A stretch of 12,715 nt of DNA from a virus (taxonomy: Monodnaviria > Loebvirae > Hofneiviricota > Faserviricetes > Tubulavirales > Inoviridae): IMG/VR virus record IMGVR_UViG_2565956711_000001. One strand, given 5' to 3'. Of the stretch, positions 1 to 12,715 are shown in pieces (within the stretch, counting starts at the first letter, position 1; the number at the start of each line of letters is the position of its first letter). The notes below the pieces were generated by a model. The model was given only the letters and a program-made list of their open reading frames with translations. It did no database searches and was not told the DNA's origin. The translations under genes and the position numbers were made by a program.

Positions 1-297
1 TCACCATTCCTCACGCCTTGCCGGTGAATCAAACTCCTTTTCTACAAAATTTGCAGGGTTTGTATAAGTTGAAAGCGGTGCAGAACTGAGCGAAATCTCC
101 ACCCCTAAAATATTTAACACTTTGTATAGACGCTCAAAACTTGCTTTTGAAGGATTTGACTCAAGGCGAGCATAAGTCTGCTGGGTTATACCCAACATGG
201 CAGATAATTCTCTTTGAGTTAATCCTTTTGATTTACGAAAACCAATTAGAAGTGGACGTAACTGGCTAAGAAGTCTAACGGGAAAAATAGTATCCAT
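1..297 (-). CDS. HipB-like XRE-family helix-turn-helix regulator/antitoxin, 98 aa, complete (stop TGA = revcomp of 1-3)
   Basis: The XRE HTH core (GLTQRELSAMLGITQQTYARLESN) and the C-terminal ...EEW resemble E. coli HipB, which ends ...NLEW. The stop overlaps a possible GTG (GTGA) of a downstream gene lying off-window, as in hipBA. The sequence differs from K-12 HipB and the context does not match the K-12 hipBA-dif arrangement. Confidence 0.6.
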   Translation of the reverse strand: MDTIFPVRLLSQLRPLLIGFRKSKGLTQRELSAMLGITQQTYARLESNPSKASFERLYKVLNILGVEISLSSAPLSTYTNPANFVEKEFDSPARREEW

Positions 298-354
298 AAG
301 TAGGTGGCCATGTCGATTACTTCATAATAAATTCACTCCTCGTAAGAAACAGCC

Positions 355-393
355 TGTAAGGTGTCTTATTACTTTACAGCTTACAAGGTGTAA
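355..393. promoter_or_regulatory. Palindrome-rich putative operator/promoter region upstream of the HipB-like gene
   Basis: CTGTAA-N12-TTACAG (355-378) and the perfect palindrome CTTACA-AGG-TGTAAG (379-393) lie directly 5' of the minus-strand gene that starts at 297. XRE regulators are typically autoregulated through such sites. Confidence 0.3.
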
Positions 394-413
394 GGGTGAA
401 CTCGTTGTATTAA

Positions 414-608
414 CTAATACTGCTCAAATTTTAAAGGTTGCATCTCGCGCTGGCTGGGATTATATTTATTAAGGACTAGCATATAGTGGTGTACGCTGTT
501 ATCCTCTTTGTAATGAGGCTTATCAGTGTGTGAAGGGAGAGGGCGGACTCTGCTTTGCCCTCTCTCTTTCATGGACTTATTTAACTTTAAATGTTTTTTA
601 AAAGTCAT
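414..608 (-). CDS. Small basic ORF (64 aa) whose ATG overlaps the stop of the upstream 186-aa gene (ATGA); doubtful
   Basis: The ATGA overlap at 605-608 suggests translational coupling. The ORF contains a strong hairpin (537-564) and has no recognisable motifs. Confidence 0.15.
   Translation of the reverse strand: MTFKKHLKLNKSMKERGQSRVRPLPSHTDKPHYKEDNSVHHYMLVLNKYNPSQREMQPLKFEQY
537..564. terminator. GC-rich hairpin GAGAGGGC-N12-GCCCTCTC, possible bidirectional terminator
   Basis: An 8-bp perfect stem read directly. On the plus strand it is followed by TCTCTTTC. It lies about 40 bp downstream of the 605..1165 gene on the minus strand, where the tail is less U-rich. Confidence 0.3.
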
Positions 609-1165
609 TGCCTTATTGCAATGGTTTTATTAAAAATCCCAATCAATGTGTTTATTTTTTCATTTATCTTAATTTGCTTTTTCTCTTGCTCGAGAGAAAG
701 TTTTCTGAATTCATTTTCCCTGCTCGGCACGGCAATTATCAACTCTTCATAAATCTCCTTTGCTCCTGATACTTTTTCCAACTCGCTGCTGTATTTTTCG
801 ATAAGAGTTCTTATTTGAATATTTACATTTCTGTATTCATGACTGGTAGCACTTAAAACAAGTTGACTGGAATTTTTTTTGGGTGCCTCAATTAACTCTA
901 CGCTTTTCTTTACGACATTGAATTCAGATGTGACTGAGTATACATATTGATACGCGCCTGATTTTCTGACTTTACTCAATAATCCTTTTCTAACTAAACA
1001 CTGAATTTGGTTATAAGCAAAAGCTTTTGCCTTAAAATAACTTTTCGGAAGTGAAAATCGCTCGATAAGAATTTGAGCCACATCGTTACTGGTGAAGTTA
1101 TCTTTAGCAATATAGATTATTGCGGAAAATATGTACGACTCAGCGTTGGATACTCGACTATTCAT
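605..1165 (-). CDS. Hypothetical protein, 186 aa; N-terminal winged-helix DNA-binding fold (BlaI/CopY/PadR-like) plus C-terminal coiled coil; strongly AT-rich gene
   Basis: The motif ...YNQIQCLVRKGLLSKVRKSGAYQYVYSV... resembles the recognition helix and wing (LVKKGLL...EGRAYVY) of BlaI/MecI/CopY-type repressors. The C-terminal 80 aa are K/E-rich heptad-like. GC is about 30 percent against about 47-50 percent for its neighbours. Confidence 0.55.
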   Translation of the reverse strand: MNSRVSNAESYIFSAIIYIAKDNFTSNDVAQILIERFSLPKSYFKAKAFAYNQIQCLVRKGLLSKVRKSGAYQYVYSVTSEFNVVKKSVELIEAPKKNSSQLVLSATSHEYRNVNIQIRTLIEKYSSELEKVSGAKEIYEELIIAVPSRENEFRKLSLEQEKKQIKINEKINTLIGIFNKTIAIRQ

Positions 1166-1187
1166 ATGACTAAAACAAGGCAGTTAA

Positions 1188-1202
1188 CTTAGGATTGCTA
1201 AG
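1188..1202. promoter_or_regulatory. Operator-like palindrome 1, CTTAG-GATTG-CTAAG
   Basis: A perfect 5-bp inverted repeat with a 5-bp spacer, in the divergent intergenic region between the 605..1165 (-) and 1263..1595 (+) genes. Confidence 0.4.
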
Positions 1203-1221
1203 TATACAACAATGGCAGATA

Positions 1222-1236
1222 CTTAGACAATCTAAG
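1222..1236. promoter_or_regulatory. Operator-like palindrome 2, CTTAG-ACAAT-CTAAG
   Basis: A second copy of the same CTTAG-N5-CTAAG motif, 34 bp centre-to-centre from the first. This is a typical tandem-operator layout for a dimeric HTH repressor. Confidence 0.4.
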
Positions 1237-1262
1237 CATTCGAGGCCAATGAAGATGAATCA

Positions 1263-1595
1263 GTGTCTGAAAAAAATCCGATACCAGAAAGACTTAAGGA
1301 AGCGAGAAGCAGGGCGGGTTTATCACAGCGCTCATTGGGCCTCCTTGTTGGGTTTGATCCCGCTTCGGCTAGCAGTCGTATGAATCATTATGAGAAAGGG
1401 CGCCATGTCCCCGATATTGATACGCTTCGACGGATGGCGGCAGAGTTAAACGTGCCGTTGAACTACTTTTTTTGTGATGATCAGACCACAGCTGAACTTG
1501 CATTACTCATATCCCGGATGACAGAGGAAGAGCGAAGTAATCTTATCGAAGCACTCAAAAGGCATCCAGGCGAAAAGCATGCTGACAAAAAATGA
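1263..1595 (+). CDS. XRE/Cro-CI-family HTH transcriptional regulator, 110 aa (GTG start)
   Basis: LKEARSRAGLSQRSLGLLVGF...MNHYEKGRHVPDIDTLRRMAAELNVPLNYFF is a canonical XRE HTH followed by a short C-terminal extension. It is divergent from the wHTH gene, with the twin operators in between. Confidence 0.7.
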   Translation: MSEKNPIPERLKEARSRAGLSQRSLGLLVGFDPASASSRMNHYEKGRHVPDIDTLRRMAAELNVPLNYFFCDDQTTAELALLISRMTEEERSNLIEALKRHPGEKHADKK

Positions 1596-1756
1596 TATTA
1601 CATATAAAGCGACTGAACTTTTTGAAGGTAACGAAAGTGTAGCATTACACTGATGCAATGAACCAAGCAGGACATTACAGTGGGAGACGCCCTCTCAGAT
1701 AACAAACTCAAAAGAGGGAGCCATAAATATATGTTTATCAATACAACCAGCATTCT

Positions 1757-1780
1757 GCCGACAACCGGGAAGCTGTCGGC
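1757..1780. terminator. Hairpin GCCGACA-N10-TGTCGGC, weak candidate terminator downstream of the recombinase operon
   Basis: A 7-bp perfect stem 20 bp beyond the stop of the 1800..2234 gene on the minus strand. The downstream tail is only moderately U-rich. Confidence 0.25.
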
Positions 1781-1799
1781 TAAATCTTCCATGTCAGAA

Positions 1800-2234
1800 T
1801 TATGACGACTTATGTAGTTCCCGAATCATATGGTTGGCCAACAGGCTTTCCACCGGTATAACCGAATTGATTTTTACCGCTTTGACAATTTCTATCAACG
1901 AAAGGGTATTTTGCGCTAATTGGTCTCGCAATTCACTTACTTCAGCCTGCAACTGCTGGTTTCTGGCCAGTAAAGCCTGACGGGTTTTGCGGTTGACGTA
2001 TTGCTGTTTTTCTTTTGGGCGTAGATTCAATGGGCCAAGTTGCTGGTCAACATAGGCAGCAATTAGGCGTTTACGCTCTAGGCTGCTCAGCGTACTTAAA
2101 CCACCGTTAACGATACCTTTTGCCTTGAGCCTAATATGCAGGGCCTTGGCGGAAATAGGGGACTTGTCAAAGCCTTCAACCAGCATCAGTTGTAATTCGT
2201 GCTCAATCAGTGTGTTCAGTTCCTTGCCGCGCAT
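1800..2234 (-). CDS. Small accessory protein (144 aa from ATG 2234..2232; 145 aa if TTG 2237..2235), last gene of the recombinase operon; possible HTH plus coiled coil (TnpC/excisionase-like role?)
   Basis: Its ATG shares the A of the TGA stop of the 788-aa gene (TGATG), indicating translational coupling. The protein has Q/L/E-rich heptads (ARNQQLQAEVSELRDQLAQN) and no catalytic motifs. Confidence 0.6.
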   Translation of the reverse strand: MRGKELNTLIEHELQLMLVEGFDKSPISAKALHIRLKAKGIVNGGLSTLSSLERKRLIAAYVDQQLGPLNLRPKEKQQYVNRKTRQALLARNQQLQAEVSELRDQLAQNTLSLIEIVKAVKINSVIPVESLLANHMIRELHKSS

Positions 2235-4600
2235 CAATCATTCTCCTGCATCAATTGTTGGTATTCAAGTGCAAAAAGCTGGGCCAGTGTACGGACTTTG
2301 CCCTCGGTGATTACTCCACCAGACAACACACTCTCAGCAGCAACCAGTTGTTGAGTCTTGGCACGACGATGCCATTGTGCTTGTATTGCCTCGAGTTGCT
2401 GTAACCGTCGTTCGATGTCGGCCAGTCTGGTCTGGTAATCAGGCTGATGTTGAGTAAGTTGGGTCAACTTCGAATGTGCTTGCTGTAAAGCCTGTTTTTT
2501 GGCAATCAGATTTGGTAGCTCATCTATCCGGCCTGTCAGCGTGAAATGTTCACAAAAGGCAGCACTCTGGCATTTCAGTCGATAAGGACATCCCCAGAGG
2601 TTAACTTCCCGCATACAGGAGCCAAATTTCAGCGGATACAGCACGGCATGTCTTGCCACCATGTCAGAGGCTTGCTCTGGTCCTTCTGCGTCGCGGATTT
2701 CTTCAAAGGCGGCAGCAACATCTTCAAAGAGGCCGTTAGCAAATGACGCCTCGACAAACCTGGCTACATCATCCCGATCGTCAAAAGTATGCAGGTTGGC
2801 TTTGATGGTATTGTCCAAAGTCATGTGTTCCGTGACCGCCAGTTGGCCGGTCCGTTTGACGATATCCAGTGGCGTAGCAATGGAGGACGAAGAGGGCGAG
2901 ACAGTTAGTGCTGTCGAAATCGGCTGCAAGGGCACCAACGAGGCGGCTTTTCGCCGTTCTGCAAGCGCCAGATGTTGATAATGCTGATTCTGCGTGATGT
3001 CCACTCGACCCATCAACATTGCCTGTAAGTGGTCAGAGATATCCGCAATAGCAAGAAAGGTATTGATGTTGTGCCGGGGAATGTGGGTACGCATCCGCGT
3101 CGAGGTGCCATCCTCCTCCAGTAATTGATATTTGCTGAATACTGATCCATCAGGCTCAACGTTGCCTAAGAATTTATTCATAAGTGTGTTAGTGAAGGGT
3201 ATCGGTGTAGCCAGCAAAGCCAGTGTGCGCTTTAATGCCAGCGAACCCTTCTCGTGTAGAAATAGCAGATCCTCGTAGTTAACTTGGTAGCGTTTGCCAT
3301 TTTCCATCCAGGCGTGTGTACAGGGTTCGTTGGCATTCGCCAGACCAAATTCGGTCTTAATGTAATGATTGAGAGCAGTCTTGGAATAATAGATAGATTT
3401 GCTGTTTTTCGGGCCTGGTATTTCTTGAACGGGCAGCACACCTCTTTTGCTAAGGGCTTTGGATGTTTTGTCCCGTTGTCCTGCCCGGCCCCGAAAACTT
3501 GAGGTAGTTTGGGTGATGTACTTCACCACATCGTCCAGTTCGACTCGTTCACCGGGCATGTTGCTGATGGCCTGTGGCAGGTAATCAGCAAAAGATTTTG
3601 CCCGTAGATAGGTAAGATGGCTGCGTATTGGTGCGGTCAACATTTTAACGGTACTGAATATACTCTCGACCAGCGGTACTGCCAGCGGTTCTACCCAATG
3701 CGTTCGCTCCCCAGCACCTTTGACACCAACATAACGGATACCAAGAAAATAATCGGGTAATCCCTTGTCCTGAAATCGTTTGCAGATTGCCGGATCATCA
3801 ATCTGGCGTTTAAACAGGGCATCCTGTCTGAGATTAAACGCTTCAATGGAGCGAAAGCCGGTAATAACCAATAACAACAGGCAATTTAACGCGATTTTCT
3901 CAGCATCACTTTCCACCCGCTGGATTAATGCAACTATGTTCAGAAATCCGCGAATGGTAATCAACGCATCTTCACCATCGGTAGTGGTATCAGACAGCTT
4001 GGCCTGCTGTTTCAGCGCCATGGTTTCCCGGGCTTTGCGGGTCAAGTTGGTTTTGTTGGTATACTTCACATCAGAGTTGTATTGCAGTTTAACCAACGTA
4101 AATGTGAAGTGATTGACCAATTTTTGAAGGCTAACGCACCGCCCTTTATAGTTAGCTGTATTGGGGTCACTAGGAGATGAAACGCTACTGAGAAGATCCA
4201 TCGCTCGTTGAATGACAACTGTGCTCAGGTAAGATGGATGGGTCTGTCCTGTCTCATAAAGCATCGCATGGTACCATCGTTTCAGAATCATCAAAGTTGC
4301 CTTTGCCACCGCTGGCGACATACTCCTATTTCCCTGTCGGTAAACCACTACCAGCATAGCTTTCATGAACTGACTATATTCTTTGTCGATGGGCAGATGT
4401 TCTACAATACCTTTGAATCTGTTCATCTCATCAAAACGTAATGTATTTCTGCCGTTCCCTCGCAACCATCCACTTCCCTGGTTACCACTTACCCAGATAT
4501 GATCATTCCATGTTTGGGCAAAATCAGCAGACAGGTGCTGTTCGAACCATTTTTTTTGCTCTTCAATAAAAGCCTGAAAATGCTCAAAGTGATTTTTCAT
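2234..4600 (-). CDS. Large tyrosine recombinase (788 aa), third gene of a recombinase trio; C-terminal Cys cluster and long coiled-coil tail
   Basis: Catalytic signatures are present: box I Arg (LVITGFRSIEAF), HxxR (HIPRHNINTFLA) and the C-terminal LMGRVDITQNQHYQH with the tyrosine nucleophile. A Cys cluster follows (SCMREVNLWGCPYRLKCQSAAFCEHF), then Q/L-rich coiled coil. An AGGTGA Shine-Dalgarno sits 6 nt upstream of the ATG at 4600. Confidence 0.8.
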   Translation of the reverse strand: MKNHFEHFQAFIEEQKKWFEQHLSADFAQTWNDHIWVSGNQGSGWLRGNGRNTLRFDEMNRFKGIVEHLPIDKEYSQFMKAMLVVVYRQGNRSMSPAVAKATLMILKRWYHAMLYETGQTHPSYLSTVVIQRAMDLLSSVSSPSDPNTANYKGRCVSLQKLVNHFTFTLVKLQYNSDVKYTNKTNLTRKARETMALKQQAKLSDTTTDGEDALITIRGFLNIVALIQRVESDAEKIALNCLLLLVITGFRSIEAFNLRQDALFKRQIDDPAICKRFQDKGLPDYFLGIRYVGVKGAGERTHWVEPLAVPLVESIFSTVKMLTAPIRSHLTYLRAKSFADYLPQAISNMPGERVELDDVVKYITQTTSSFRGRAGQRDKTSKALSKRGVLPVQEIPGPKNSKSIYYSKTALNHYIKTEFGLANANEPCTHAWMENGKRYQVNYEDLLFLHEKGSLALKRTLALLATPIPFTNTLMNKFLGNVEPDGSVFSKYQLLEEDGTSTRMRTHIPRHNINTFLAIADISDHLQAMLMGRVDITQNQHYQHLALAERRKAASLVPLQPISTALTVSPSSSSIATPLDIVKRTGQLAVTEHMTLDNTIKANLHTFDDRDDVARFVEASFANGLFEDVAAAFEEIRDAEGPEQASDMVARHAVLYPLKFGSCMREVNLWGCPYRLKCQSAAFCEHFTLTGRIDELPNLIAKKQALQQAHSKLTQLTQHQPDYQTRLADIERRLQQLEAIQAQWHRRAKTQQLVAAESVLSGGVITEGKVRTLAQLFALEYQQLMQEND

Positions 4601-6149
4601 TGGACTTCACCTGTTCCTGATGAAAACGGCAGCGGGCGATAACAGACTCAATTTCAAACTGTGTGGTTTCATGGATTAAAATGAGCGGATTTCGGGAATT
4701 ACCTACACCGTCTGAAATAGCGATTAGTTCATCGACTTCTTTTTTGACGCATTCAAGTAGAGCCTGATGTTCACCATCCGTAAAAGGGCGATAATACAGA
4801 CAGCCGTAACAAGAACGCACTTCGCTGAAAGGGCATGTACTACTGTTCCTGGAGCAACCACCAATTTTATCATGCAACTCGTCACCAACGAGTCCCACCA
4901 CTGGATGGCCTTTCCAATGTGCTGAGTCGACCAGTTCCCCAGTGAGCATCATAGCCACCATATTTTGCCAAACGGGATTCGACCCAAGCGCTTTAGCACG
5001 GATCAAGGCCAACGCGGGAGTTGCCATAATGTAGTATTTAGCTACGGCAAGAGAGGTGTGCCCCAGTACATGTGCTATCTCTTCAGCGCTAGCACCTTGC
5101 ATCGCCAAAGAGTGCCCAACATTGTGGCGTAAATCAGTGGGTGTAATTGTGGGCAATGCAGCTTCGCCACATGCTACGGCGGCTTGATATTCAGGAGGAC
5201 AGAAATTTAGGATTGCCTGATTAATTGCCTGAGACACATAATGCGGAGCTGAAACGCTGAAATCGAATAGTTTATCTTCGGGGTTTTTCTTATATCTCAC
5301 GGTATAGTTCATAATTAACTCCCCAATTTCTGGGGGGATCGCCAGAAATAACCGCTCTGTCGTCACTCGTCTTTGTTTAGCATATGGTAAAAAAACACTG
5401 TATCGAATCAGACCAGATTCCTGATTTCGTGTATCGATACGAACATCTTTGACCGCCAGCCTAGCGAGTTGTACTGGGCGTGCACCCGTTACATAAGCCA
5501 ACCCAAGGATAGCTGCATTGCGCACTTCGCTGTGACTGAAACTTTTGCCATCGCGTAACAACGAAGCCATTTCAAACAGTCCATTGCAAATCATGTTTTT
5601 TTCAAGAGGGTCAAGAATATTATCGATTTCTTGGTAACCCCCCCAATGTTCGAGATACGGTCGAGGGACGAACTCAAGATCATCGTAATCTTCAAGATTG
5701 AAACCTGGGAATGTTTCAGCACAAAGTATTTTTAATCCGAATAACACGGAATAAAAAGTAGCATTATCAATATCCTCTTTTTCGATAAATAATCGGAGCG
5801 TACTAAGCGAAAACCCACCATGTTCTCGACAATATGAAATGATATTCCTCCAATCAAGGTGCAACGCTGGAAGTTTGGTTGGAAATCTCGTCGATGCATA
5901 TTTGAAACAGATATACTTGTTTAATTTATTTGAGATATAATCTTGATTGAAAACAAGATATCGCCGACTGCCTGAATAATCGAAAGTCCATTTATTTCCT
6001 TTGTTAACAATATATTTATCATCAAACTCCATTGCCGTTTTTAGATAAATTCGATCAGGAATATCGAGTTCAAAGATAGCCTTAGCTAAATCAGGAGGGT
6101 AAACTGAGTTCCCTTCGTCAGATTTTAATGCATTATCAAATGATGTCAT
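4584..6149 (-). CDS. Tyrosine recombinase (521 aa), second gene of the trio, with C-terminal Cys-rich extension
   Basis: VTGARPVQL (box I Arg), DLRHNVGHSLA (LRH motif) and VLGHTSLAVAKYYI (LGH...Y) are XerC-like catalytic motifs. The motif CSRNSSTCPFSEVRSCYGC follows the catalytic Tyr. The gene overlaps both neighbours (14 and 17 nt). Confidence 0.8.
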   Translation of the reverse strand: MTSFDNALKSDEGNSVYPPDLAKAIFELDIPDRIYLKTAMEFDDKYIVNKGNKWTFDYSGSRRYLVFNQDYISNKLNKYICFKYASTRFPTKLPALHLDWRNIISYCREHGGFSLSTLRLFIEKEDIDNATFYSVLFGLKILCAETFPGFNLEDYDDLEFVPRPYLEHWGGYQEIDNILDPLEKNMICNGLFEMASLLRDGKSFSHSEVRNAAILGLAYVTGARPVQLARLAVKDVRIDTRNQESGLIRYSVFLPYAKQRRVTTERLFLAIPPEIGELIMNYTVRYKKNPEDKLFDFSVSAPHYVSQAINQAILNFCPPEYQAAVACGEAALPTITPTDLRHNVGHSLAMQGASAEEIAHVLGHTSLAVAKYYIMATPALALIRAKALGSNPVWQNMVAMMLTGELVDSAHWKGHPVVGLVGDELHDKIGGCSRNSSTCPFSEVRSCYGCLYYRPFTDGEHQALLECVKKEVDELIAISDGVGNSRNPLILIHETTQFEIESVIARCRFHQEQVKSNEKSL

Positions 6150-7530
6150 CGTTATATCTATCCATTATAGTATCTAACGTATTATGTAGCGCTGCATTGT
6201 CTTGAATAATTCGTTGGACATTGGCAGCATTAGCCTGCTCAGACAGGAAACGTTTTGCATATAGATCAGGCATTTGACTTGTCGGACTCCATCCCCCCAT
6301 CAGTCGTAGTTCATCTTTAGCTTCTTCCATTATCCCTGAGAGGGAAGGGACTTCAGCAATAAAGTGTGTTTTATTTTGCTGGCTTTTCAAATATTTTAAA
6401 TGCCATATTTTTTGCAATGTCAAAAAGGCCCAAGTATGTCGGGTTGTATGCGGAGTCAATCGTTGCAACGAGTCAGAGTACAACGGTGATTTGTACTCTG
6501 GATATTGGTTAGTGAAGACCTGATCTATTTTCGAAAAAATAGAATGAACTGATGTGTAGGACAAAGGCTTCGCTGACTGTTGACTCGATGTAAAGATGAA
6601 ATCGTGTTTATCAGTTTTTGGTCGAAGCTTTGCTATATAAATGCTTAAAAAAATATAATCCTGCTTATCGAGCTCCAACACACGATTAGCCCATGCATTT
6701 TTGAGAGATGGCGCATTCTTTCTTGGTTCGTATGCCTCGTCGACAGTTGTCACAATCAAACTAAACTTATCACCTTTTAAATTAGGTTTAATTGAGCTGC
6801 ACTCTAACAACAATAGCTCACCTGTTCGTAAACCATAATTTAACAACAGACGAATAATCAAAAAATTGCGGAACTGAAGATGCCCGGAAGGGAAAGGATT
6901 TAGCGGGTTATGCTTTTGGGCAGAAGAGGGGGTTATTATTCCATACAGGCTGAGCACCATTGCCCCAGACAAACTCTGAAATCCTTGGCTGCTGTGACTA
7001 TGTTGCGAAAATTTGTTTGATGTAAGCGTTCGATAATTCTCCCGGCAAAGCTGTAAACGGGTGTGTAAACGCGAAGCCAAAAGTGATAATGCTTTGGGAG
7101 AGTCATCCCGGTATGCAGGTGATATGTAGGTGTTAATCAAAAAAGAAATGAAATGGATCACAGCACGAACTCTAACTGTATGAGTTAAGCTATTGGCTTT
7201 TGTGACTCTCGTTAAAGACAACACATTTGACTGGACGTTGTGGCCATTTTCTAGATACATCCAAAATGCGGGCATTTCACCGACAGCAATGTCTGGATTG
7301 TGGTCAGATGAATAGAAGCTGTAGCAAAACGAGACACCATACTTTTGCCTCCAGAATTCGTAAAAAAACTTCACAGATTGAAGTGAAGCTGACTGTGTGG
7401 ACAATGAGCGGAAAGCCAAATGGTCAATATGGTACCTAAGGGGATACAGCAACGGCAGAGAGGTTTCCAAGTCCATCAGGATCCATCGCCTTTTACGGCC
7501 TGAGATAACCAACTGCTTTAGTGAATACAC
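6136..7530 (-). CDS. Tyrosine recombinase (464 aa, GTG start), first gene of the trio (TnpA/RitA-like position)
   Basis: NYGLRTGELLLLE (box I), TPHTTRHTWA (HxxR) and LMGGWSPTSQMPDLYAKRF (Trp in place of the second His, as in Cre, then Tyr). A GAGG Shine-Dalgarno sits 8 nt upstream of GTG 7530..7528, and a GATAAT -10-like hexamer lies at 7546..7551 (minus). Confidence 0.8.
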   Translation of the reverse strand: MYSLKQLVISGRKRRWILMDLETSLPLLYPLRYHIDHLAFRSLSTQSASLQSVKFFYEFWRQKYGVSFCYSFYSSDHNPDIAVGEMPAFWMYLENGHNVQSNVLSLTRVTKANSLTHTVRVRAVIHFISFLINTYISPAYRDDSPKALSLLASRLHTRLQLCRENYRTLTSNKFSQHSHSSQGFQSLSGAMVLSLYGIITPSSAQKHNPLNPFPSGHLQFRNFLIIRLLLNYGLRTGELLLLECSSIKPNLKGDKFSLIVTTVDEAYEPRKNAPSLKNAWANRVLELDKQDYIFLSIYIAKLRPKTDKHDFIFTSSQQSAKPLSYTSVHSIFSKIDQVFTNQYPEYKSPLYSDSLQRLTPHTTRHTWAFLTLQKIWHLKYLKSQQNKTHFIAEVPSLSGIMEEAKDELRLMGGWSPTSQMPDLYAKRFLSEQANAANVQRIIQDNAALHNTLDTIMDRYNDDII

Positions 7531-7673
7531 AATATTTACCTCAAAATTATCATGGATATGAAGAGAATGTACTCTGTACCTAATGCAAGAAACGAGAGGG
7601 AGATCAGAAATCCTAACGTATTGATTTATCAGTTAGTGGGAGTGTCATATGAACTTATTTACCACAGTAGGTG

Positions 7674-7701
7674 ATTTAACATAATATACATTATGCGCAC
7701 C
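7674..7701 (-). other. dif: dif chromosome dimer resolution site (XerC/XerD), perfect 28-mer
   Basis: The plus strand reads ATTTAACATAATATACATTATGCGCACC. Its reverse complement, GGTGCGCATAA-TGTATA-TTATGTTAAAT, is identical to the E. coli/enterobacterial dif consensus. Confidence 0.9.
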
Positions 7702-7986
7702 AGTGCGCAGATACGCCAGAAATCAGCCTGTAACCATCACCACGGCATTAAACGGTCATCGCTGTTACGTTCTTTCGTCTTCGACCGTCAGCCATCCGTA
7801 TCGCTTCTGAATACGCCGGAATGAAAAACAGGCTTTGCAGTGCCGGGAATTATTATGGCTGACGCCATAATGCTGTTTATGTCCTCGCTTCGCTGCGGGG
7901 CTTCCGGCGCTAAGCGCCTCCCATGCCTGACGGCATAAAAACCGGATATGCCGCCACGTCACCGCATGATACGTCCGTCGCCACCA

Positions 7987-9249
7987 TCACCGCGCGCGCT
8001 CCTCGTGGGAACTCGGTGCGTGCGCGGCGCTGGCGCGCCTGACTTTTTTCGCCTGTAACACGACAAGAATATCCGTCTTGTTCTTCTCGTCAGATGAACT
8101 GGTGAGCCAGCCTTTTGGCAGAAAGCTGAACCCGGTATCGGCGTTTGTGACCTTCGATTCAGCCAGGCCACCCAGCAGAATAATATCCCCGTCAGCCGCT
8201 GATACCTCCGTATTCACCTCGCGCTTAATCAGCGTCGGGCTGTTATTCACGCCCGTATCCGTCTTCGCAAAGCTGGAAAGCTGCTGCTTAATCACAAGGT
8301 CAATATTGTCAGTCCGGATTTGCGGTTTCACGTCGAGGATAACGCCACTAGAGCGATATTCAATCGACTGGATCGGCCTGTTGTCGGCGTAGCTCACCTG
8401 ACCCAGCACCGGAACCTCGTTACCGACTGAAAACGTGGCAGATGCGCCATCCTTCACCCTGAGCCGCGGGGAACTGACGACATGAAAACGACTGTCCGTC
8501 CTGAAAAGCTCATACAGCGCATCAAGAGAGCCTGTATTCACCCGGATAAAGTTATCAAAACCGCCAGACGCGCCAATCTGTATATTCAGCTTGCCGGAAA
8601 GCAGCTTCGCCGCCAGTGCCAGCCCGGAACCGTTACGCTCACTGGTCTGAACCTCAAACACGTAAGCTGCGACAATCACTTCTTCAGAGGCAGTATCAAT
8701 CAGCGGTAAAAGCGTCTGCAACCGCTTAATCTCTGACTTCCGGCCATAATAAACCAGCACATCCCCGGTACGGTTCATAAAGTCCGATGCCGTACCCGCT
8801 ACGGCCGCTTCTGGCGATATCTGCCCGGACGGTAACGAGTTACGCTGACTGTTAAACTGCCCGGTAAACTGTCCGGCCAGAATGTCAGACAGATACGCCA
8901 CGGAACGGAAGCGAGGCCGATAAACAAAGGTCTCCTGCGGCGGCACATACACTTTCGGCGTGAACGGCGCCACGTAGTCAATGCCCTGTTTGTTATAAAT
9001 CGCAATGTTCATATTGCCGAGATAGCGCTTAATAAATGCCCGTTCATCGATATCCGGCGTGATACGGAACGTCACCACCTTATCGGATTTGGCAAGCTCC
9101 GGGTCAAGCATAAACGGCTTATCGAACACCTGAACGTAAATCATGTTCAGCGCCTGCGGCAGCGGAACAGCGTTGAGCTCCAGACTGACGCCCTTCGCCA
9201 TAACCAGCCCCGGAACCAGTAAAAAAAGTAAACCTGTTATCAGCTTCAT
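7987..9249 (-). CDS. Filamentous-phage pIV-like outer-membrane secretin (420 aa)
   Basis: An N-terminal signal peptide (MKLITGLLFLLVPGLVMA) and the C-terminal secretin motif ...LLGGLAESKVTNADTGFSFLPKGWL...ILVVLQAKKV parallel M13 pIV (...LLLGGLTDYKN...GVPFLSKIPLIG...LYVLVKATIV). The size matches pIV (426 aa). The start is coupled to pI by an ATGA overlap. Confidence 0.85.
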   Translation of the reverse strand: MKLITGLLFLLVPGLVMAKGVSLELNAVPLPQALNMIYVQVFDKPFMLDPELAKSDKVVTFRITPDIDERAFIKRYLGNMNIAIYNKQGIDYVAPFTPKVYVPPQETFVYRPRFRSVAYLSDILAGQFTGQFNSQRNSLPSGQISPEAAVAGTASDFMNRTGDVLVYYGRKSEIKRLQTLLPLIDTASEEVIVAAYVFEVQTSERNGSGLALAAKLLSGKLNIQIGASGGFDNFIRVNTGSLDALYELFRTDSRFHVVSSPRLRVKDGASATFSVGNEVPVLGQVSYADNRPIQSIEYRSSGVILDVKPQIRTDNIDLVIKQQLSSFAKTDTGVNNSPTLIKREVNTEVSAADGDIILLGGLAESKVTNADTGFSFLPKGWLTSSSDEKNKTDILVVLQAKKVRRASAAHAPSSHEERAR

Positions 9250-10280
9250 CGTATCGCCCCTGAATAAACCGTCACCGTTTCGCCGTCGATTTCACCCGTC
9301 ATCATCATGCCGTCAAAGCTGAACTGCGAAGCCGGCTCTATACGCAATCTGCCTGACGTGTCTGCAACAACAACCCATGCCTGACCATCGCGTTTAAGCC
9401 GTCCGGCAAGTCGCCATTTGTCCGACACAACGGGCTTAGCTGGCGCGGCAGGTACAAAAGACGCTGAATTATTTGCGGCGGGTAAATCTTTAGTCTGCTG
9501 TTCAGGCTCTGAATTACCGTTTGACGTGAAAAACCAGAACAGATAAAAAATGGCAATTACCGCCAGAATCAGTAACCCGACAGCTTTAAACCACAACATT
9601 TTAGAACTGAAAATATTCTGACGTTTATCGGTGACAAGTTCCCTTCCCTGCCCGTTCTCATGGGATTTATATAGGGGGAATATCGCCTTGTCATATTTAT
9701 TCTGATAACTGTTCGTCAGATTCGACTTAAACAGTTTGATACCCGTAAATACGTCCACACGGTAGCGGTTATGCAGACCCAGCGCCACATGCTTACTCAT
9801 GCGATACGTTGTTTCCACCCGGTCTTTAATGAATCGCGGAAGGTTGGCAACAGACTGATTCATAACCACTAAATCACAGGTTACGCCCGTTTTTTCATCG
9901 GCAAAATGGCGATGTTCTGCAATGAAAGAGCGATGATTTGCAGGAATCCCTTTATCGTTCTCCCATATGCGCCATGCTTCATCAATACAGATTAAATCCC
10001 CCGGACGGCAGAACGTATCATCCGCAATGCCTGAATCCGTTTTGTAGGGAAAGAAATTATCGTTCTGAACGTCTTCATTCTGAACAAGTAAAATTTCACC
10101 AAGTGATTCCCTGTCTGCCTTTTTAATATCAACGCAGTAATCATAAATACTTTGCGTGGCAAGGCCGTAAATATTACTGACAATGCGACGCCCAGCGATA
10201 CAGGCGGGAATAATGACGCTTGCCACCACTTCGTAAGATTTACCGCTTCCGGGAATGCCCACATACGCAGAAATAGCCAT
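9246..10280 (-). CDS. Filamentous-phage pI / Zot-family assembly ATPase (344 aa)
   Basis: An N-terminal Walker A (GIPGSGKS), a single mid-protein transmembrane segment (AVGLLILAVIAIFYLFWFF), and a position between the gVI and gIV homologues. Confidence 0.85.
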   Translation of the reverse strand: MAISAYVGIPGSGKSYEVVASVIIPACIAGRRIVSNIYGLATQSIYDYCVDIKKADRESLGEILLVQNEDVQNDNFFPYKTDSGIADDTFCRPGDLICIDEAWRIWENDKGIPANHRSFIAEHRHFADEKTGVTCDLVVMNQSVANLPRFIKDRVETTYRMSKHVALGLHNRYRVDVFTGIKLFKSNLTNSYQNKYDKAIFPLYKSHENGQGRELVTDKRQNIFSSKMLWFKAVGLLILAVIAIFYLFWFFTSNGNSEPEQQTKDLPAANNSASFVPAAPAKPVVSDKWRLAGRLKRDGQAWVVVADTSGRLRIEPASQFSFDGMMMTGEIDGETVTVYSGAIR

Positions 10281-10283
10281 AAA

Positions 10284-10571
10284 TTAACCAATCAAAGGAA
10301 TGCGACGAATAATAAAGCGCGTTAACAATGCTGAAAACATCAGTTTAATCCCTTCCGTGACCATAAACAGATTCACGAAATACCATACGCTATCAGGTAG
10401 TGAGGAAAACAACCCGGCAATATCAACAGATTTTGGCAACAGTGACGCCAGAACCGGAACAAACGCCTGTACGACAAAGTACAGGCCAAAAAACAGAATA
10501 AATTTGACAACCACCGTTCGCAGCACAAAACCCAGCGCCACGTTAAAGGCTGAAACCAGAATACCAAACAT
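10284..10571 (-). CDS. pVI-like minor coat protein (95 aa), hydrophobic
   Basis: A small multi-TM protein located between the pIII-like and pI-like genes, exactly as gVI is in Ff phages. It has no motif of its own beyond hydrophobicity and size. Confidence 0.6.
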   Translation of the reverse strand: MFGILVSAFNVALGFVLRTVVVKFILFFGLYFVVQAFVPVLASLLPKSVDIAGLFSSLPDSVWYFVNLFMVTEGIKLMFSALLTRFIIRRIPLIG

Positions 10572-10581
10572 AACGCCTCCG

Positions 10582-12465
10582 TCACGCAGTCAGAATGATA
10601 CGCAGCGAAATAATGCCCCAGATAAGCAGGAATACCGCTTTCAGAAGTGGCCTGATTTTTTCCAGAAGCTCGCAGTGAGAATCAATGGAATATTTATTGT
10701 CCCAGAGTTCGAACGACCATACCGGACACTGAACATCCTTCGATGAAATACTCAGGTTTTTAATGTCCGGCATTAATTCTGTAATTGGCTTGAGAATTTC
10801 CTCACCTGTAGGCGGTTTTTCAAGTTCCGGCGATTTAATGCCGGGGTCTTCGCCTAAATCAACAGAAGTATCGGTATCTGTGCCTGTACCAGGGTGTACA
10901 CCTGTATCCGTTCCCGCACCGGGTCTGGCATTAACCCACGACTGAGGAACGACAACCGGACTATAAAGCAAGCCCTTATCAAGTTTTACGCCAACAGCAT
11001 TAGCCGCAGCCGTCAGTTCAGCCGCCGTAAAAGGTTTATCAAGCGGTATCCCCTGATATCCTTCCTGAACAACAGTCTGACCTGCAAGGCCATTAATAAG
11101 ATTAACCAGCGCAGCCGGGTTTAACTGTTCCTCCGGCTTGAAATCTATATTATCAATAACCTCGCCATTAATTACCTGAGGTAAATTTGATGTATCAAAT
11201 TCTGTATTAAAAAATATCTGGTCTTTAACATCCTGAACATCATTCGTCGTTTTATACACGGCCTTCTCAGGGTGGCAAATACTTTTCCACTGCGTTTTGG
11301 GATTATCAGCCGTACTGCCCGGCGCAGGTACTTTCTCGCTTTTACATAAATCCCATGAGTTTTCAAGCGTAACCGTTGTTGTTCCAACAGATAAAACCAC
11401 AGTTACAATCGATGAATATCCACCAAAATAAGGATTCGGCTTTTCATACTGAAAGTCTTTAACGGAAACCGAATAAACCTTAAAATTTCTTGGCATCCTG
11501 ATATGTAAGTTATTGTCGTCAGACGCCTCATGATAAGTCACATTGGAATGAGAATAACCATTAATCGACTTATAAAGCGCAATCATTACCGGATTATCAC
11601 TGACAAGTACAGCATCGCCCTTTGCATCCCTGATATCAGTCGAATAAGGATATTTAGTACCCTTAACTGACACACGATATACATCATTCGGTAATGGCTG
11701 GCTTATCGGCGGTGGTGCATCAATATTGTAATAGGTTGGCGCAATCTGAACAGGTTTAACCTGATGATTATAAGGGCTTATCGAGTCCTGAATATTCTTC
11801 GCAGAAAAGCCAGTAGCATCAGAGGGCAAATAAACAGCAACAGGGCTTTTAGGTGAAGGTGCAACAGAAGAAGTAACAGTAGCGCCATTGGACAAATTAA
11901 GTAAATAAGTTCCATCATCCTGTTTTATTCCACTTGTAATATATTCAACAGCTTTTGCGCCCTGCTTTAAAGCAAGGTCAGCAACGGAAATAACACCCGC
12001 AGCCTGCCCCAGCAATCCCCATGTTGTCTGTCCGGCAGCCATCATATTACTGCCAAAACTTGAAATACCCGTGGATATCGAATCGTCAATTGTATGCTTC
12101 GCAAGGCCATAAGCAGCCGCGAAAACTGACGTTCCGGTGCAAAGCTGAGGATTACCCACTTTCTCGCCACACATGCGGATTGAATCAAAAACGTCAGGAC
12201 GTTCGCGTATAACCTCCGCAGCGACAGCGATACCCGCGCCCATACCGAGAGAACTGGCACCCGTTGCGAATACACGCCCCGCAGATTGAGAAACAACCTG
12301 AGCTTCACGGGTTTCAACCATTTGCTGAATTACACGTCCAAATCCGTCTGCTGTTACTGCATCAGCATGTACACCGGATGAAACCAGTAAAGACAATATA
12401 GTAATACCTAACTTTCCAGACCCTGAATGACCGCCCAGGCGCATAAAAGCCCCCATAAAAAACAC
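10582..12465 (-). CDS. pIII-like minor coat / host-adsorption protein (627 aa; true start may be Met8 at 12444)
   Basis: A signal-peptide-like N-terminus and Gly/Thr/Asp-rich flexible linkers (GAGTDTGVHPGTGTDTDTSVDLGEDPG) separate globular domains. A C-terminal membrane anchor (LLKAVFLLIWGIISLRIIL) is typical of pIII. The gene lies between the gVIII and gVI homologues. Confidence 0.7.
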   Translation of the reverse strand: MFFMGAFMRLGGHSGSGKLGITILSLLVSSGVHADAVTADGFGRVIQQMVETREAQVVSQSAGRVFATGASSLGMGAGIAVAAEVIRERPDVFDSIRMCGEKVGNPQLCTGTSVFAAAYGLAKHTIDDSISTGISSFGSNMMAAGQTTWGLLGQAAGVISVADLALKQGAKAVEYITSGIKQDDGTYLLNLSNGATVTSSVAPSPKSPVAVYLPSDATGFSAKNIQDSISPYNHQVKPVQIAPTYYNIDAPPPISQPLPNDVYRVSVKGTKYPYSTDIRDAKGDAVLVSDNPVMIALYKSINGYSHSNVTYHEASDDNNLHIRMPRNFKVYSVSVKDFQYEKPNPYFGGYSSIVTVVLSVGTTTVTLENSWDLCKSEKVPAPGSTADNPKTQWKSICHPEKAVYKTTNDVQDVKDQIFFNTEFDTSNLPQVINGEVIDNIDFKPEEQLNPAALVNLINGLAGQTVVQEGYQGIPLDKPFTAAELTAAANAVGVKLDKGLLYSPVVVPQSWVNARPGAGTDTGVHPGTGTDTDTSVDLGEDPGIKSPELEKPPTGEEILKPITELMPDIKNLSISSKDVQCPVWSFELWDNKYSIDSHCELLEKIRPLLKAVFLLIWGIISLRIILTA

Positions 12466-12498
12466 ATAAAATCAAAAAGATATTGAGCCATAAATATA

Positions 12499-12518
12499 AA
12501 GGGGCTGTTACGCCCCTT
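12499..12518 (-). terminator. Rho-independent terminator downstream of the major coat gene
   Basis: Stem AAGGGGC/GCCCCTT with a 6-nt loop. On the minus strand it is followed by a TTTATATTTAT run. This is the position of the strong post-gVIII terminator in Ff phages. Confidence 0.5.
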
Positions 12519-12529
12519 ACCTTTATGAA

Positions 12530-12715
12530 TTAAGCGCCACGAACCATACGCAAAATCCAGCGGACACCCGCAGAACCTGCATACAGAACAATAAGAGAAC
12601 CCGCTACCGCCATAATTCCGGTCAGAACGGAACCGAAATTAACGCTGTTAGTCAGTGGCGTAAGGTCAATACCTTTACCACCAACAACATCACCTTCAGC
12701 AGCAAATACGGCAGG
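12530..12715 (-). CDS. pVIII-like major coat protein, 3' part (start beyond right edge); no M-start ORF in the track because it is truncated
   Basis: Minus-frame translation gives ...PAVFA|AEGDVVGGKGIDLTPLTNSVNFGSVLTGIMAVAGSLIVLYAGSAGVRWILRMVRGA*. This shows a signal-peptidase site, an acidic N-terminus (compare M13 AEGDDP), a hydrophobic core and a basic C-terminus. That is the hallmark layout of inovirus major coat proteins. Confidence 0.75.
   Translation of the reverse strand, partial: PAVFAAEGDVVGGKGIDLTPLTNSVNFGSVLTGIMAVAGSLIVLYAGSAGVRWILRMVRGA

Follow-up and report, generated by a model that had tools for sequence, protein, structure and literature searches.

The dif site is essential in chromosome segregation and hardly varies across Gammaproteobacteria, so that it is ideally suited as a universal docking site; IMEX phages are known to exploit it via Xer. 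The CTX-type IMEXs use a (+) single-stranded substrate and a XerC-first exchange that is completed by replication and is irreversible, and tandem copies are needed for phage production; YpfPhi and CUS-1Phi, from Yersinia and E. coli, are counted among the related members (PMC4246890). The UPphi901-like inoviruses of Enterobacterales, described as relatives of IKe and I2-2, form ∼7.5-kb tandem prophages at E. coli dif, where the repeat comprises only the first ∼15 bases of dif (PMC7307601). [quoted passage not shown] All four gin genes are needed for excision and integration in the Pseudomonas GInts that have been studied (PMC5385486; PMC10214605), and the described targets are an ABC-transporter gene or ssb (PMC5385486).

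In the locus analyzed here, a stretch of 12,715 nucleotides (the window), an inovirus prophage and a genomic island meet at one dif. Very probably, two independent docking systems use this single site: the phage enters at the XerC arm by Xer-dependent, single-strand integration, and the island enters at the outer part of the XerD arm by gin-dependent integration. The dif site, CTX-type IMEX phages, and GInts are all of known kinds, and it is the target specificity that appears to be new. The features of the window are as follows.

1-1595: accessory genes of the island module, namely an HTH gene at 1-297 (minus), a 186-aa ORF at 605-1165 (minus), and an HTH/RstR-like gene at 1263-1595 (plus)
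1800-2237, minus: ginD-like gene for a small protein of 145 aa; its start overlaps the ginC stop, and its size fits GinD (∼130-175 aa)
2234-4600, minus: ginC-like gene, 788 aa, predicted recombinase fold
4584-6149, minus: ginB-like tyrosine recombinase gene, 521 aa; Pfam Phage_integrase, 1e-10; overlaps ginA and ginC, consistent with an operon
6136-7476, minus: ginA-like tyrosine recombinase gene, 446 aa; Pfam Phage_integrase, 4e-7; R217, H343, R346, H347, and Y406 invariant in the homologue alignment
6342-6349, plus: KOPS GGGNAGGG within the island, pointing toward dif
7477-7673, minus: ginA-proximal island terminus, with the subterminal repeat TATGAACTTA at 7648-7657, 16 bp from the core, and a second conserved motif at ∼7613-7630
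7674-7680, plus: ATTTAAC, the outer 7 bp of the XerD arm and candidate crossover core, repeated at the far end of the island in relatives
7674-7701, minus: dif, 28/28 match; on the plus strand, XerD arm 7674-7684, centre TGTATA 7685-7690, XerC arm 7691-7701
7702-7986, minus: phage intergenic region, ending in the phage half of attP beside the XerC arm; homology to phage-free genomes stops at 7700-7705
7987-9249, minus: secretin gene; Pfam Secretin, 2e-24
9246-10280, minus: Zot/pI ATPase gene; Pfam Zot, 3e-24
9641-9648 and 9646-9653, minus: two KOPS in the phage, pointing toward dif
10284-10571, minus: DUF2523 (pVI-like) gene; Pfam DUF2523, 1e-12
10582-12465, minus: 627-aa ORF in the pIII position
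12530-12715, minus: 3' part of the putative major coat protein gene, cut at the window edge and assigned by position from the annotation of strain G5 (L001:27529-27777, offset 14999)

The first-pass annotation read positions 7674-7701 as a perfect dif with mobile elements on both sides that had integrated successively, and this reading is borne out. The reverse complement of these positions, GGTGCGCATAATGTATATTATGTTAAAT, has 0 mismatches to E. coli dif and is identical at 28 of 28 positions to the K-12 site (L003:15751-15778); the 28-mer is unique in the window at ≤3 mismatches and occurs 0 times in 200 shuffles. Site-specific insertions at both arms are found in relatives. The distances originally given, ∼290 bp to the prophage and 144 bp to the recombinase operon, hold as distances to genes (286 bp to the end of the secretin ORF at 7987 and 144 bp to the longest ginA ORF start at 7530, the start annotated in RefSeq relatives being 7476, at 198 bp), but the boundaries of the elements lie closer to dif, and the island adjoins the XerD arm with 7 bp in common. 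The DNA of the window resembles that of E. coli: at positions 1-7700 it matches strain EC09 at 100% identity and many other strains at 99.9%, and at positions 7674-12715 it matches strain G5 at 98.7%. The island part and the phage part occur together in no complete genome of the collection, and K-12 has only positions 7672-7702 in common with the window. The copy number of dif, the far junctions, and the flanks were read in relatives, in parts that are 98.7-100% identical, rather than in the source genome.

To the right of dif, phage DNA starts right at the XerC arm, and the genes at 7987-12465 all lie on the minus strand. These morphogenesis genes are 98.7% identical to those of prophages in G5 and NCTC9040, where the complete phage unit is 7669 bp long, includes replication, single-strand-binding, and coat genes, and is present in two tandem copies. 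No integrase or recombinase is annotated in these full 7669-bp units or in a 7439-bp circular relative; the window shows 5 kb of its own copy. By gene content and attachment site, the prophage is a CTX-type IMEX, and we infer that it uses Xer. A degenerate dif-like site had been predicted for the other prophage junction, beyond the window, and such a site is indeed present in G5 and NCTC9040, two complete genomes with the same phage. The array in G5 consists of, in order, a perfect dif, the phage, the hybrid site GGTGCGCATAA TGTGTG ACTCGTTATGT, the phage again, the same hybrid site, an ISNCY element, and hipA. The hybrid site at the far junction has a perfect XerC arm and 14 bases in common with dif, and the XerD arm is absent; an inverted second half-site, CATTATGCGCATT, lies ∼70 nt downstream. 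The sequence ...CTGCGCACT|GGTGCGCATAA that precedes dif in the window also precedes the attP-type site at the G5 tandem junction and in the free circular relative from E. coli A37, which has the same attP design. Folded in silico, the coding-sense strand of attP forms a hairpin (dG -37.4, z -6.2) in which the XerC and XerD arms are paired around a bulged centre. Folding of the whole 289-nt phage intergenic region was no better than that of shuffled sequences (z -0.9), and an Rfam search of the window returned no known RNA.

These elements suggest the following course of integration. The (+) single strand of the inovirus would fold its two inverted dif-like half-sites into a hairpin, and host XerC would then swap one pair of strands at the boundary between the XerC arm and the centre, where GGTGCGCATAA plus TGT is common to both partners; replication would finish the process. 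The expected products are a perfect dif, made up of the XerC arm of the phage and the centre and XerD arm of the chromosome, and a dead hybrid site at the far end. The position of the phage on the XerC side fits this geometry, in which the perfect dif has exactly that composition. With a good dif regenerated, more copies may enter and give rise to the tandem arrays needed for phage production; in the source genome, phage units of ∼7.7 kb would end in GGTGCGCATAATGTGTGACTCG....

The prophage thus resembles the CTXphi-type IMEXs in being filamentous, lacking an integrase, residing at dif, and possessing an attP made of two inverted dif-like sites that can pair in the (+) strand, as well as in its homology on the XerC side, the regeneration of a functional dif beside a dead hybrid site, and the tandem copies. 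It differs from the described members in that it has no clear DNA match to deposited phages, its best Zot match is at 52% amino acid identity, to uncultured gut inoviruses, and its Xer dependence is read from sequence. At the DNA level, comparison of the 5-kb phage part with deposited phages gave only weak matches to uncultured inoviruses (Dulem virus, Inovirus D_HF), so that identification with CUS-1, Ypf, IKe, or UPphi-like phages was unsupported, and the phage itself appears not to be a described one. It shares with UPphi901 the tandem arrangement at E. coli dif, 14 dif bases being common to phage and site; because the phage part matched only uncultured inoviruses, it appears to represent a lineage different from UPphi901.

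Three additional observations concern the phage and its intergenic region. First, a non-coding segment of ∼96 bp (7831-7926) is ∼85% identical to unannotated DNA on many E. coli plasmids of 35-78 kb and may be a single-strand initiation or minus-strand origin element. Second, a 43-codon ORF on the plus strand (7693-7824), with its ATG within the XerC arm, carries the annotation hypothetical protein WP_262162528.1 at every copy of the phage in both G5 and NCTC9040; it probably represents an artefact of annotation. Third, the same inovirus is found at 97.9% identity in two places on a 272-kb plasmid of strain 98219 (NZ_CP173491.1), which suggests integration at a plasmid Xer site.

To the left of dif, four overlapping minus-strand ORFs encoding proteins of 446, 521, 788, and 145 aa point away from the site. 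GInt membership was assessed against the cassette ECs_3512-3509 of E. coli Sakai, which is included in the published GInt list. The best match of the window GinA is Sakai GinA (BLASTP, 1e-14; profile, 3e-23), that of GinB is Sakai GinB (BLASTP, 7e-8), and that of GinC is Sakai GinC (2e-8); profile searches against the Sakai GInt proteins gave 3e-23 and 2e-14, and the identities are 24-28%. BLASTP detected no match between the GinD-like protein and Sakai GinD. Because A, B, and C each have their positional counterpart in a listed GInt as best match, the island is, on these observed homologies, a divergent GInt-type element. Like other GInts, it has a four-gene operon at one end, variable cargo after ginD, a site-specific insertion, short imperfect direct repeats, and, in E. 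coli, defence cargo; unlike the described GInts, it targets dif, is only 24-28% identical, and has a GinD without detectable similarity. Multiple recombinases, target specificity, and a small auxiliary protein are also features of SE (strand-biased circularizing integrative element) and Tn554. However, the order in SE is intA-tfp-intB-srap, in contrast to A-B-C-D here with the recombinase-fold protein third rather than second, and Tn554 has no recombinase-fold third protein. The RefSeq accessions of the island's GinC and GinD are absent from one part of the GInt list of Idola et al., and Hochhauser et al., who placed defence hotspot 20 in the hipA-ydeT interval, named the same cassette in strain S1 a "putative transposon" rather than a GInt. 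The gamma-mobile-trio (GmtY) family was also considered and gave only a marginal NCBIfam match.

The 788-aa GinC-like protein has no sequence-family match. Among its invariant residues are some that resemble an active site (TGFRSxE with R250, H506-x-x-R509-H510, and Y541), the Y541 region being modelled at low confidence (pLDDT <50 over 513-572). By eye, the window GinC seems to keep R...HxxRH...Y-like residues, unlike the GInt GinC, which is reported to lack the first Arg. Across the family, the GinD-like protein is the best conserved (84-99% in enterics and 50-67% in Acinetobacter), whereas GinA, whose gene is closest to the junction, shows the lowest conservation (52-56% and 36-40%, respectively, in these loci). 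The block at 1-1595 is conserved together with ginABCD (100% in EC09 and 86% in G5). It includes an HTH_3 match at 3.6e-15, and the plus-strand HTH gene at 1263-1595 gives a sub-threshold match to RstR, the CTXphi repressor family (1.3e-9, 38 bits versus a cut-off of 80).

The ends of the island were compared among three divergent islands in E. coli: the EC09/window type of 38 kb, the G5/FELIX type of 22 kb, and the A25 type of 13 kb. The far junctions of all three read host-ATTTAAC-TTATGTTG(T/A)G..., and the near junctions read ...-ATTTAAC-ATAATATACA (dif), the ginA side being ...-ATTTAAC-ATAATATACATTATGCGCACC. ATTTAAC is all of dif that occurs at the far junctions of these three E. coli islands, where no XerC arm or dif-like centre is present; the reconstructed site of the element itself contains ATTTAACTTAT, a look-alike of the XerD arm at 9 of 11 positions. 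Compared with the empty K-12 site, the only identity of the reconstructed site is ATTTAAC, extended to TGATTTAACnTA in the window type. Both ends of the island carry an inward repeat, (T/A)A(G/C)TTCAT(A/G), 16-17 bp from the core: the subterminal repeat of the ginA-proximal terminus has an inverted copy 17 bp inside the far end, and the motif [TA][TA]A[GC]TTCAT[AG] is found 16-18 bp inside the element at ∼45 loci in many genera. Far junctions are documented in E. coli only; regular-expression searches of the 10-kb flanks of the loci from the Genome Taxonomy Database (GTDB) found none beyond EC09.

A search for a joined-ends (circular) form of the island gave no full-length match and turned up a tandem junction in strain LD93-1 instead. 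There, ATTTAAC connects the ginA-proximal end of an IS-destroyed island of the window type with the distal end of another island, which is complete and abuts dif. This junction implies that islands may insert successively at the same core, and its left flank, which is not host DNA, points to target recognition on the dif side. As judged from these junctions, the island is a site-specific insertion with a 7-bp core that keeps all 28 bp of dif at one junction, and the other junction is not of the Xer type. The island would integrate by its own GinA and GinB recombinases with the help of GinC and GinD, and we infer that it does so independently of Xer. Crossover at ATTTAAC would leave the 28 bp of dif at the ginA-proximal junction and the 7-bp core alone at the distal one, new islands could insert again at ATTTAAC, and the joint of a circular island would read ...CCACAGTAGGTG-ATTTAAC-TTATGTTGTGTG....

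The linkage of ginA to dif extends far beyond E. coli. Alignment of GinA homologues led to 78 loci in species-representative genomes of the GTDB, 63 of which have enough upstream sequence. At 41 of the 63 loci, a dif-type site oriented as in the window precedes ginA by 134-355 bp, most often by 186-220 bp; these loci represent 17 genera, among them Enterobacter, Citrobacter, Pectobacterium, Serratia, Acinetobacter, Psychrobacter, Moraxella, Rheinheimera, Marinobacter, Vibrio, and Aeromonas. Next to ginA, TGTATA is always the centre and TTATGTTAAAT always the XerD arm; the XerC arm depends on the host (for example, ATTTCGTATAA in Acinetobacter). In most related loci, and wherever the contig allows, ginB, ginC, and ginD are collinear with ginA; the loci that lack the link to dif contain truncated copies or very distant homologues (26-31% identity). 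No relevant paper on GInts or recombinase trios linked to dif was found in the open literature, and a Gammaproteobacteria-wide clade of GInts with specificity for the XerD arm of dif appears to be undescribed. If this reading is correct, a self-sufficient recombinase island that, in at least 17 genera, inserts at the outer part of the XerD arm represents a second, independent way to exploit dif, and the defined, portable attachment site together with its recombinase set would be of use in experiments and might serve genome engineering as well. A further-reaching proposal, which we regard as speculative and rather doubtful, is that a widespread GInt clade evolved to use the XerD arm as its attachment site, with recognition from the dif side and possibly via bound XerD, and that dif is a landing pad for at least three unrelated types of elements, all of which leave its 28 bp intact: IMEX phages at the XerC arm, insertion sequences of the IS1202 type 5 bp outside that arm, and GInts at the XerD arm.

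The involvement of Xer in integration of the island could be partial. The island recombinases might cooperate with host XerD bound at its arm of dif, as the XerC-like protein of Tn6022 does with XerD, and we consider such a mixed mechanism unlikely. The target and the XerD arm overlap; beside all members of the family, that arm and the centre stay the same, and the other flank varies; the site of the element keeps GTTAAAT and a second, inverted TTATGTT; and an element-encoded recombinase working with XerD has a precedent (PMC11014353). Indeed, the Tn6022 protein resembles the case at hand in that a tyrosine recombinase of the element is tied to a site containing the host XerD arm (PMC11014353), but that system consists of a single Xer-like protein with XerD and a hybrid 28-bp site, unlike the four-protein module and the crossover at the outer edge of the arm seen here. 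Moreover, the Pseudomonas GInts hit unrelated targets (an ABC transporter gene and ssb) via four gin genes, and the core is at the outer end of the arm, well away from where XerD cleaves. Participation of host XerD, if real, would amount to a new Xer-assisted pathway in which element-encoded recombinases are the driving force.

Far less probable is that both flanking elements are IMEXs integrated by XerCD in a tandem array, as the first-pass annotation had proposed. That proposal stands for the prophage; it fails for the recombinase-trio element. The border of each element falls exactly at dif, IMEX arrays in tandem are familiar from Vibrio (PMC4246890), and the distal junction of the island retains the XerD-arm-like sequence with its 9 of 11 matches. 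Against this, the island encodes two tyrosine recombinases and a recombinase-fold protein by the junction, and its far end has only ATTTAAC, with neither a XerC arm nor a dif-like centre. Xer enzymes cut at the boundaries between the arms and the centre, whereas the break in the host XerD arm comes after 7 bp, at a position cut by neither XerD nor XerC; a crossover so far out in this arm speaks against an IMEX mechanism for the island.

It is scarcely credible that the adjacency to dif reflects shared ancestry or homologous recombination in a variable region, with no site-specific targeting. The hipA-ydeT interval is indeed a known variable hotspot of E. coli (hotspot 20), and the islands are rich in IS elements, but the same orientation and a spacing of ∼200 bp recur in 17 genera with GinA identities down to 30%, the observed junctions of three divergent islands are precise to the base and share the 7-bp repeat, and LD93-1 presents a re-insertion at the same core.

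Two further checks proposed in the first-pass annotation, a search for a better-placed dif elsewhere and the position of the locus relative to KOPS convergence, both favor the site in the window. With a 31-nt probe containing the 28-mer, each record has one dif place (5225 places in 5225 records), corresponding to 5224 of 5426 complete E. coli genomes, and the single copy in the relatives is at the K-12 dif locus. Beyond the elements in EC09, FELIX_MS533, and A25, the K-12 dif neighbourhood resumes at 94-100% identity, with yneL/ydeT lying beyond the XerD arm and hipA beyond the XerC arm. KOPS converge on dif in EC09 (8:0 to the left and 0:2 to the right) as well as in K-12 (5:0 and 0:2). The single copy, the orthologous flanks, and the convergence of KOPS together indicate a functional-type chromosomal dif rather than a pseudo-site. 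The probability that the 28-mer is carried by phage or island with the functional dif elsewhere is negligible, since, even if the XerC arm present here after integration is phage-derived and the phage has its own copy of that arm, the double-stranded phage site has no XerD arm, 5224 genomes have one perfect dif per chromosome, KOPS converge at this locus, and occupied sites differ from the empty K-12 site by precise insertions at the same locus. By these indications, the 28-mer is the genuine single chromosomal dif of an E. coli-like genome, kept between two elements that use it differently; the base-precise junctions suggest that its 28 bp are spared by each element landing there.

All KOPS inside the islands and the phage face dif (1:0, 2:0, 2:0, and 2:0 in the islands and 2:0 per phage copy). 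On the element side of 45 GTDB loci, 27 KOPS point toward dif and 2 away from it, although these counts are not independent because the elements are related. This polarity is compatible with selection for an FtsK-permissive orientation beside dif.

A third type of element was observed at the same place in five related genomes, where 5 bp (AATAT) separate the XerC arm or the last phage hybrid site from the start of an ISNCY (ISKpn21/IS1202-group) element or a remnant of one, at the following positions.

EC09: L002:22702-24216
G5: L001:38039-39544
NCTC9040: L087:∼29240-30853
A25 and LD93-1: among L084:23659-23996 and L089:∼35900-37413

In EC09, T replaces G as the outermost base of the XerC arm. 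Siguier and colleagues are said to have reported in 2023, in Plasmid, that IS1202-group (ISNCY) insertion sequences target XerCD sites. Like the phage and the island, these elements have a fixed place at dif; unlike them, they use a transposase rather than a recombinase, and they are absent from the window.

The islands range from 13 to 38 kb, and their cargo differs by strain. The cargo genes (L002:1-15000, L001:7000-14700, L083, L084, and L089) include NACHT, an ATP-dependent nuclease with a UvrD helicase (Gabija-like), and a ThiF/MPN/nucleotidyltransferase set, as well as a type I restriction-modification system, an ABC-three-component system, many IS elements, and a group II intron. If the island is targeted to dif as proposed, its defence cargo would explain why hipA-ydeT is a defence-island hotspot of E. 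coli. Finally, ∼100 bp of the ginA-proximal end of the island was identified at 98-99% identity on large plasmids (∼50-60 E. coli plasmid matches), among them pT28R-1 (NZ_CP049354.1, L085:4017-4144), fused to the hybrid Xer-type site ATTTAACATAAT CCTCG TTATATGTACC and followed by an ISNCY element. This fusion looks as if it arose either when Xer recombined chromosomal dif with the resolution site of a plasmid or when an island inserted beside a plasmid Xer site.
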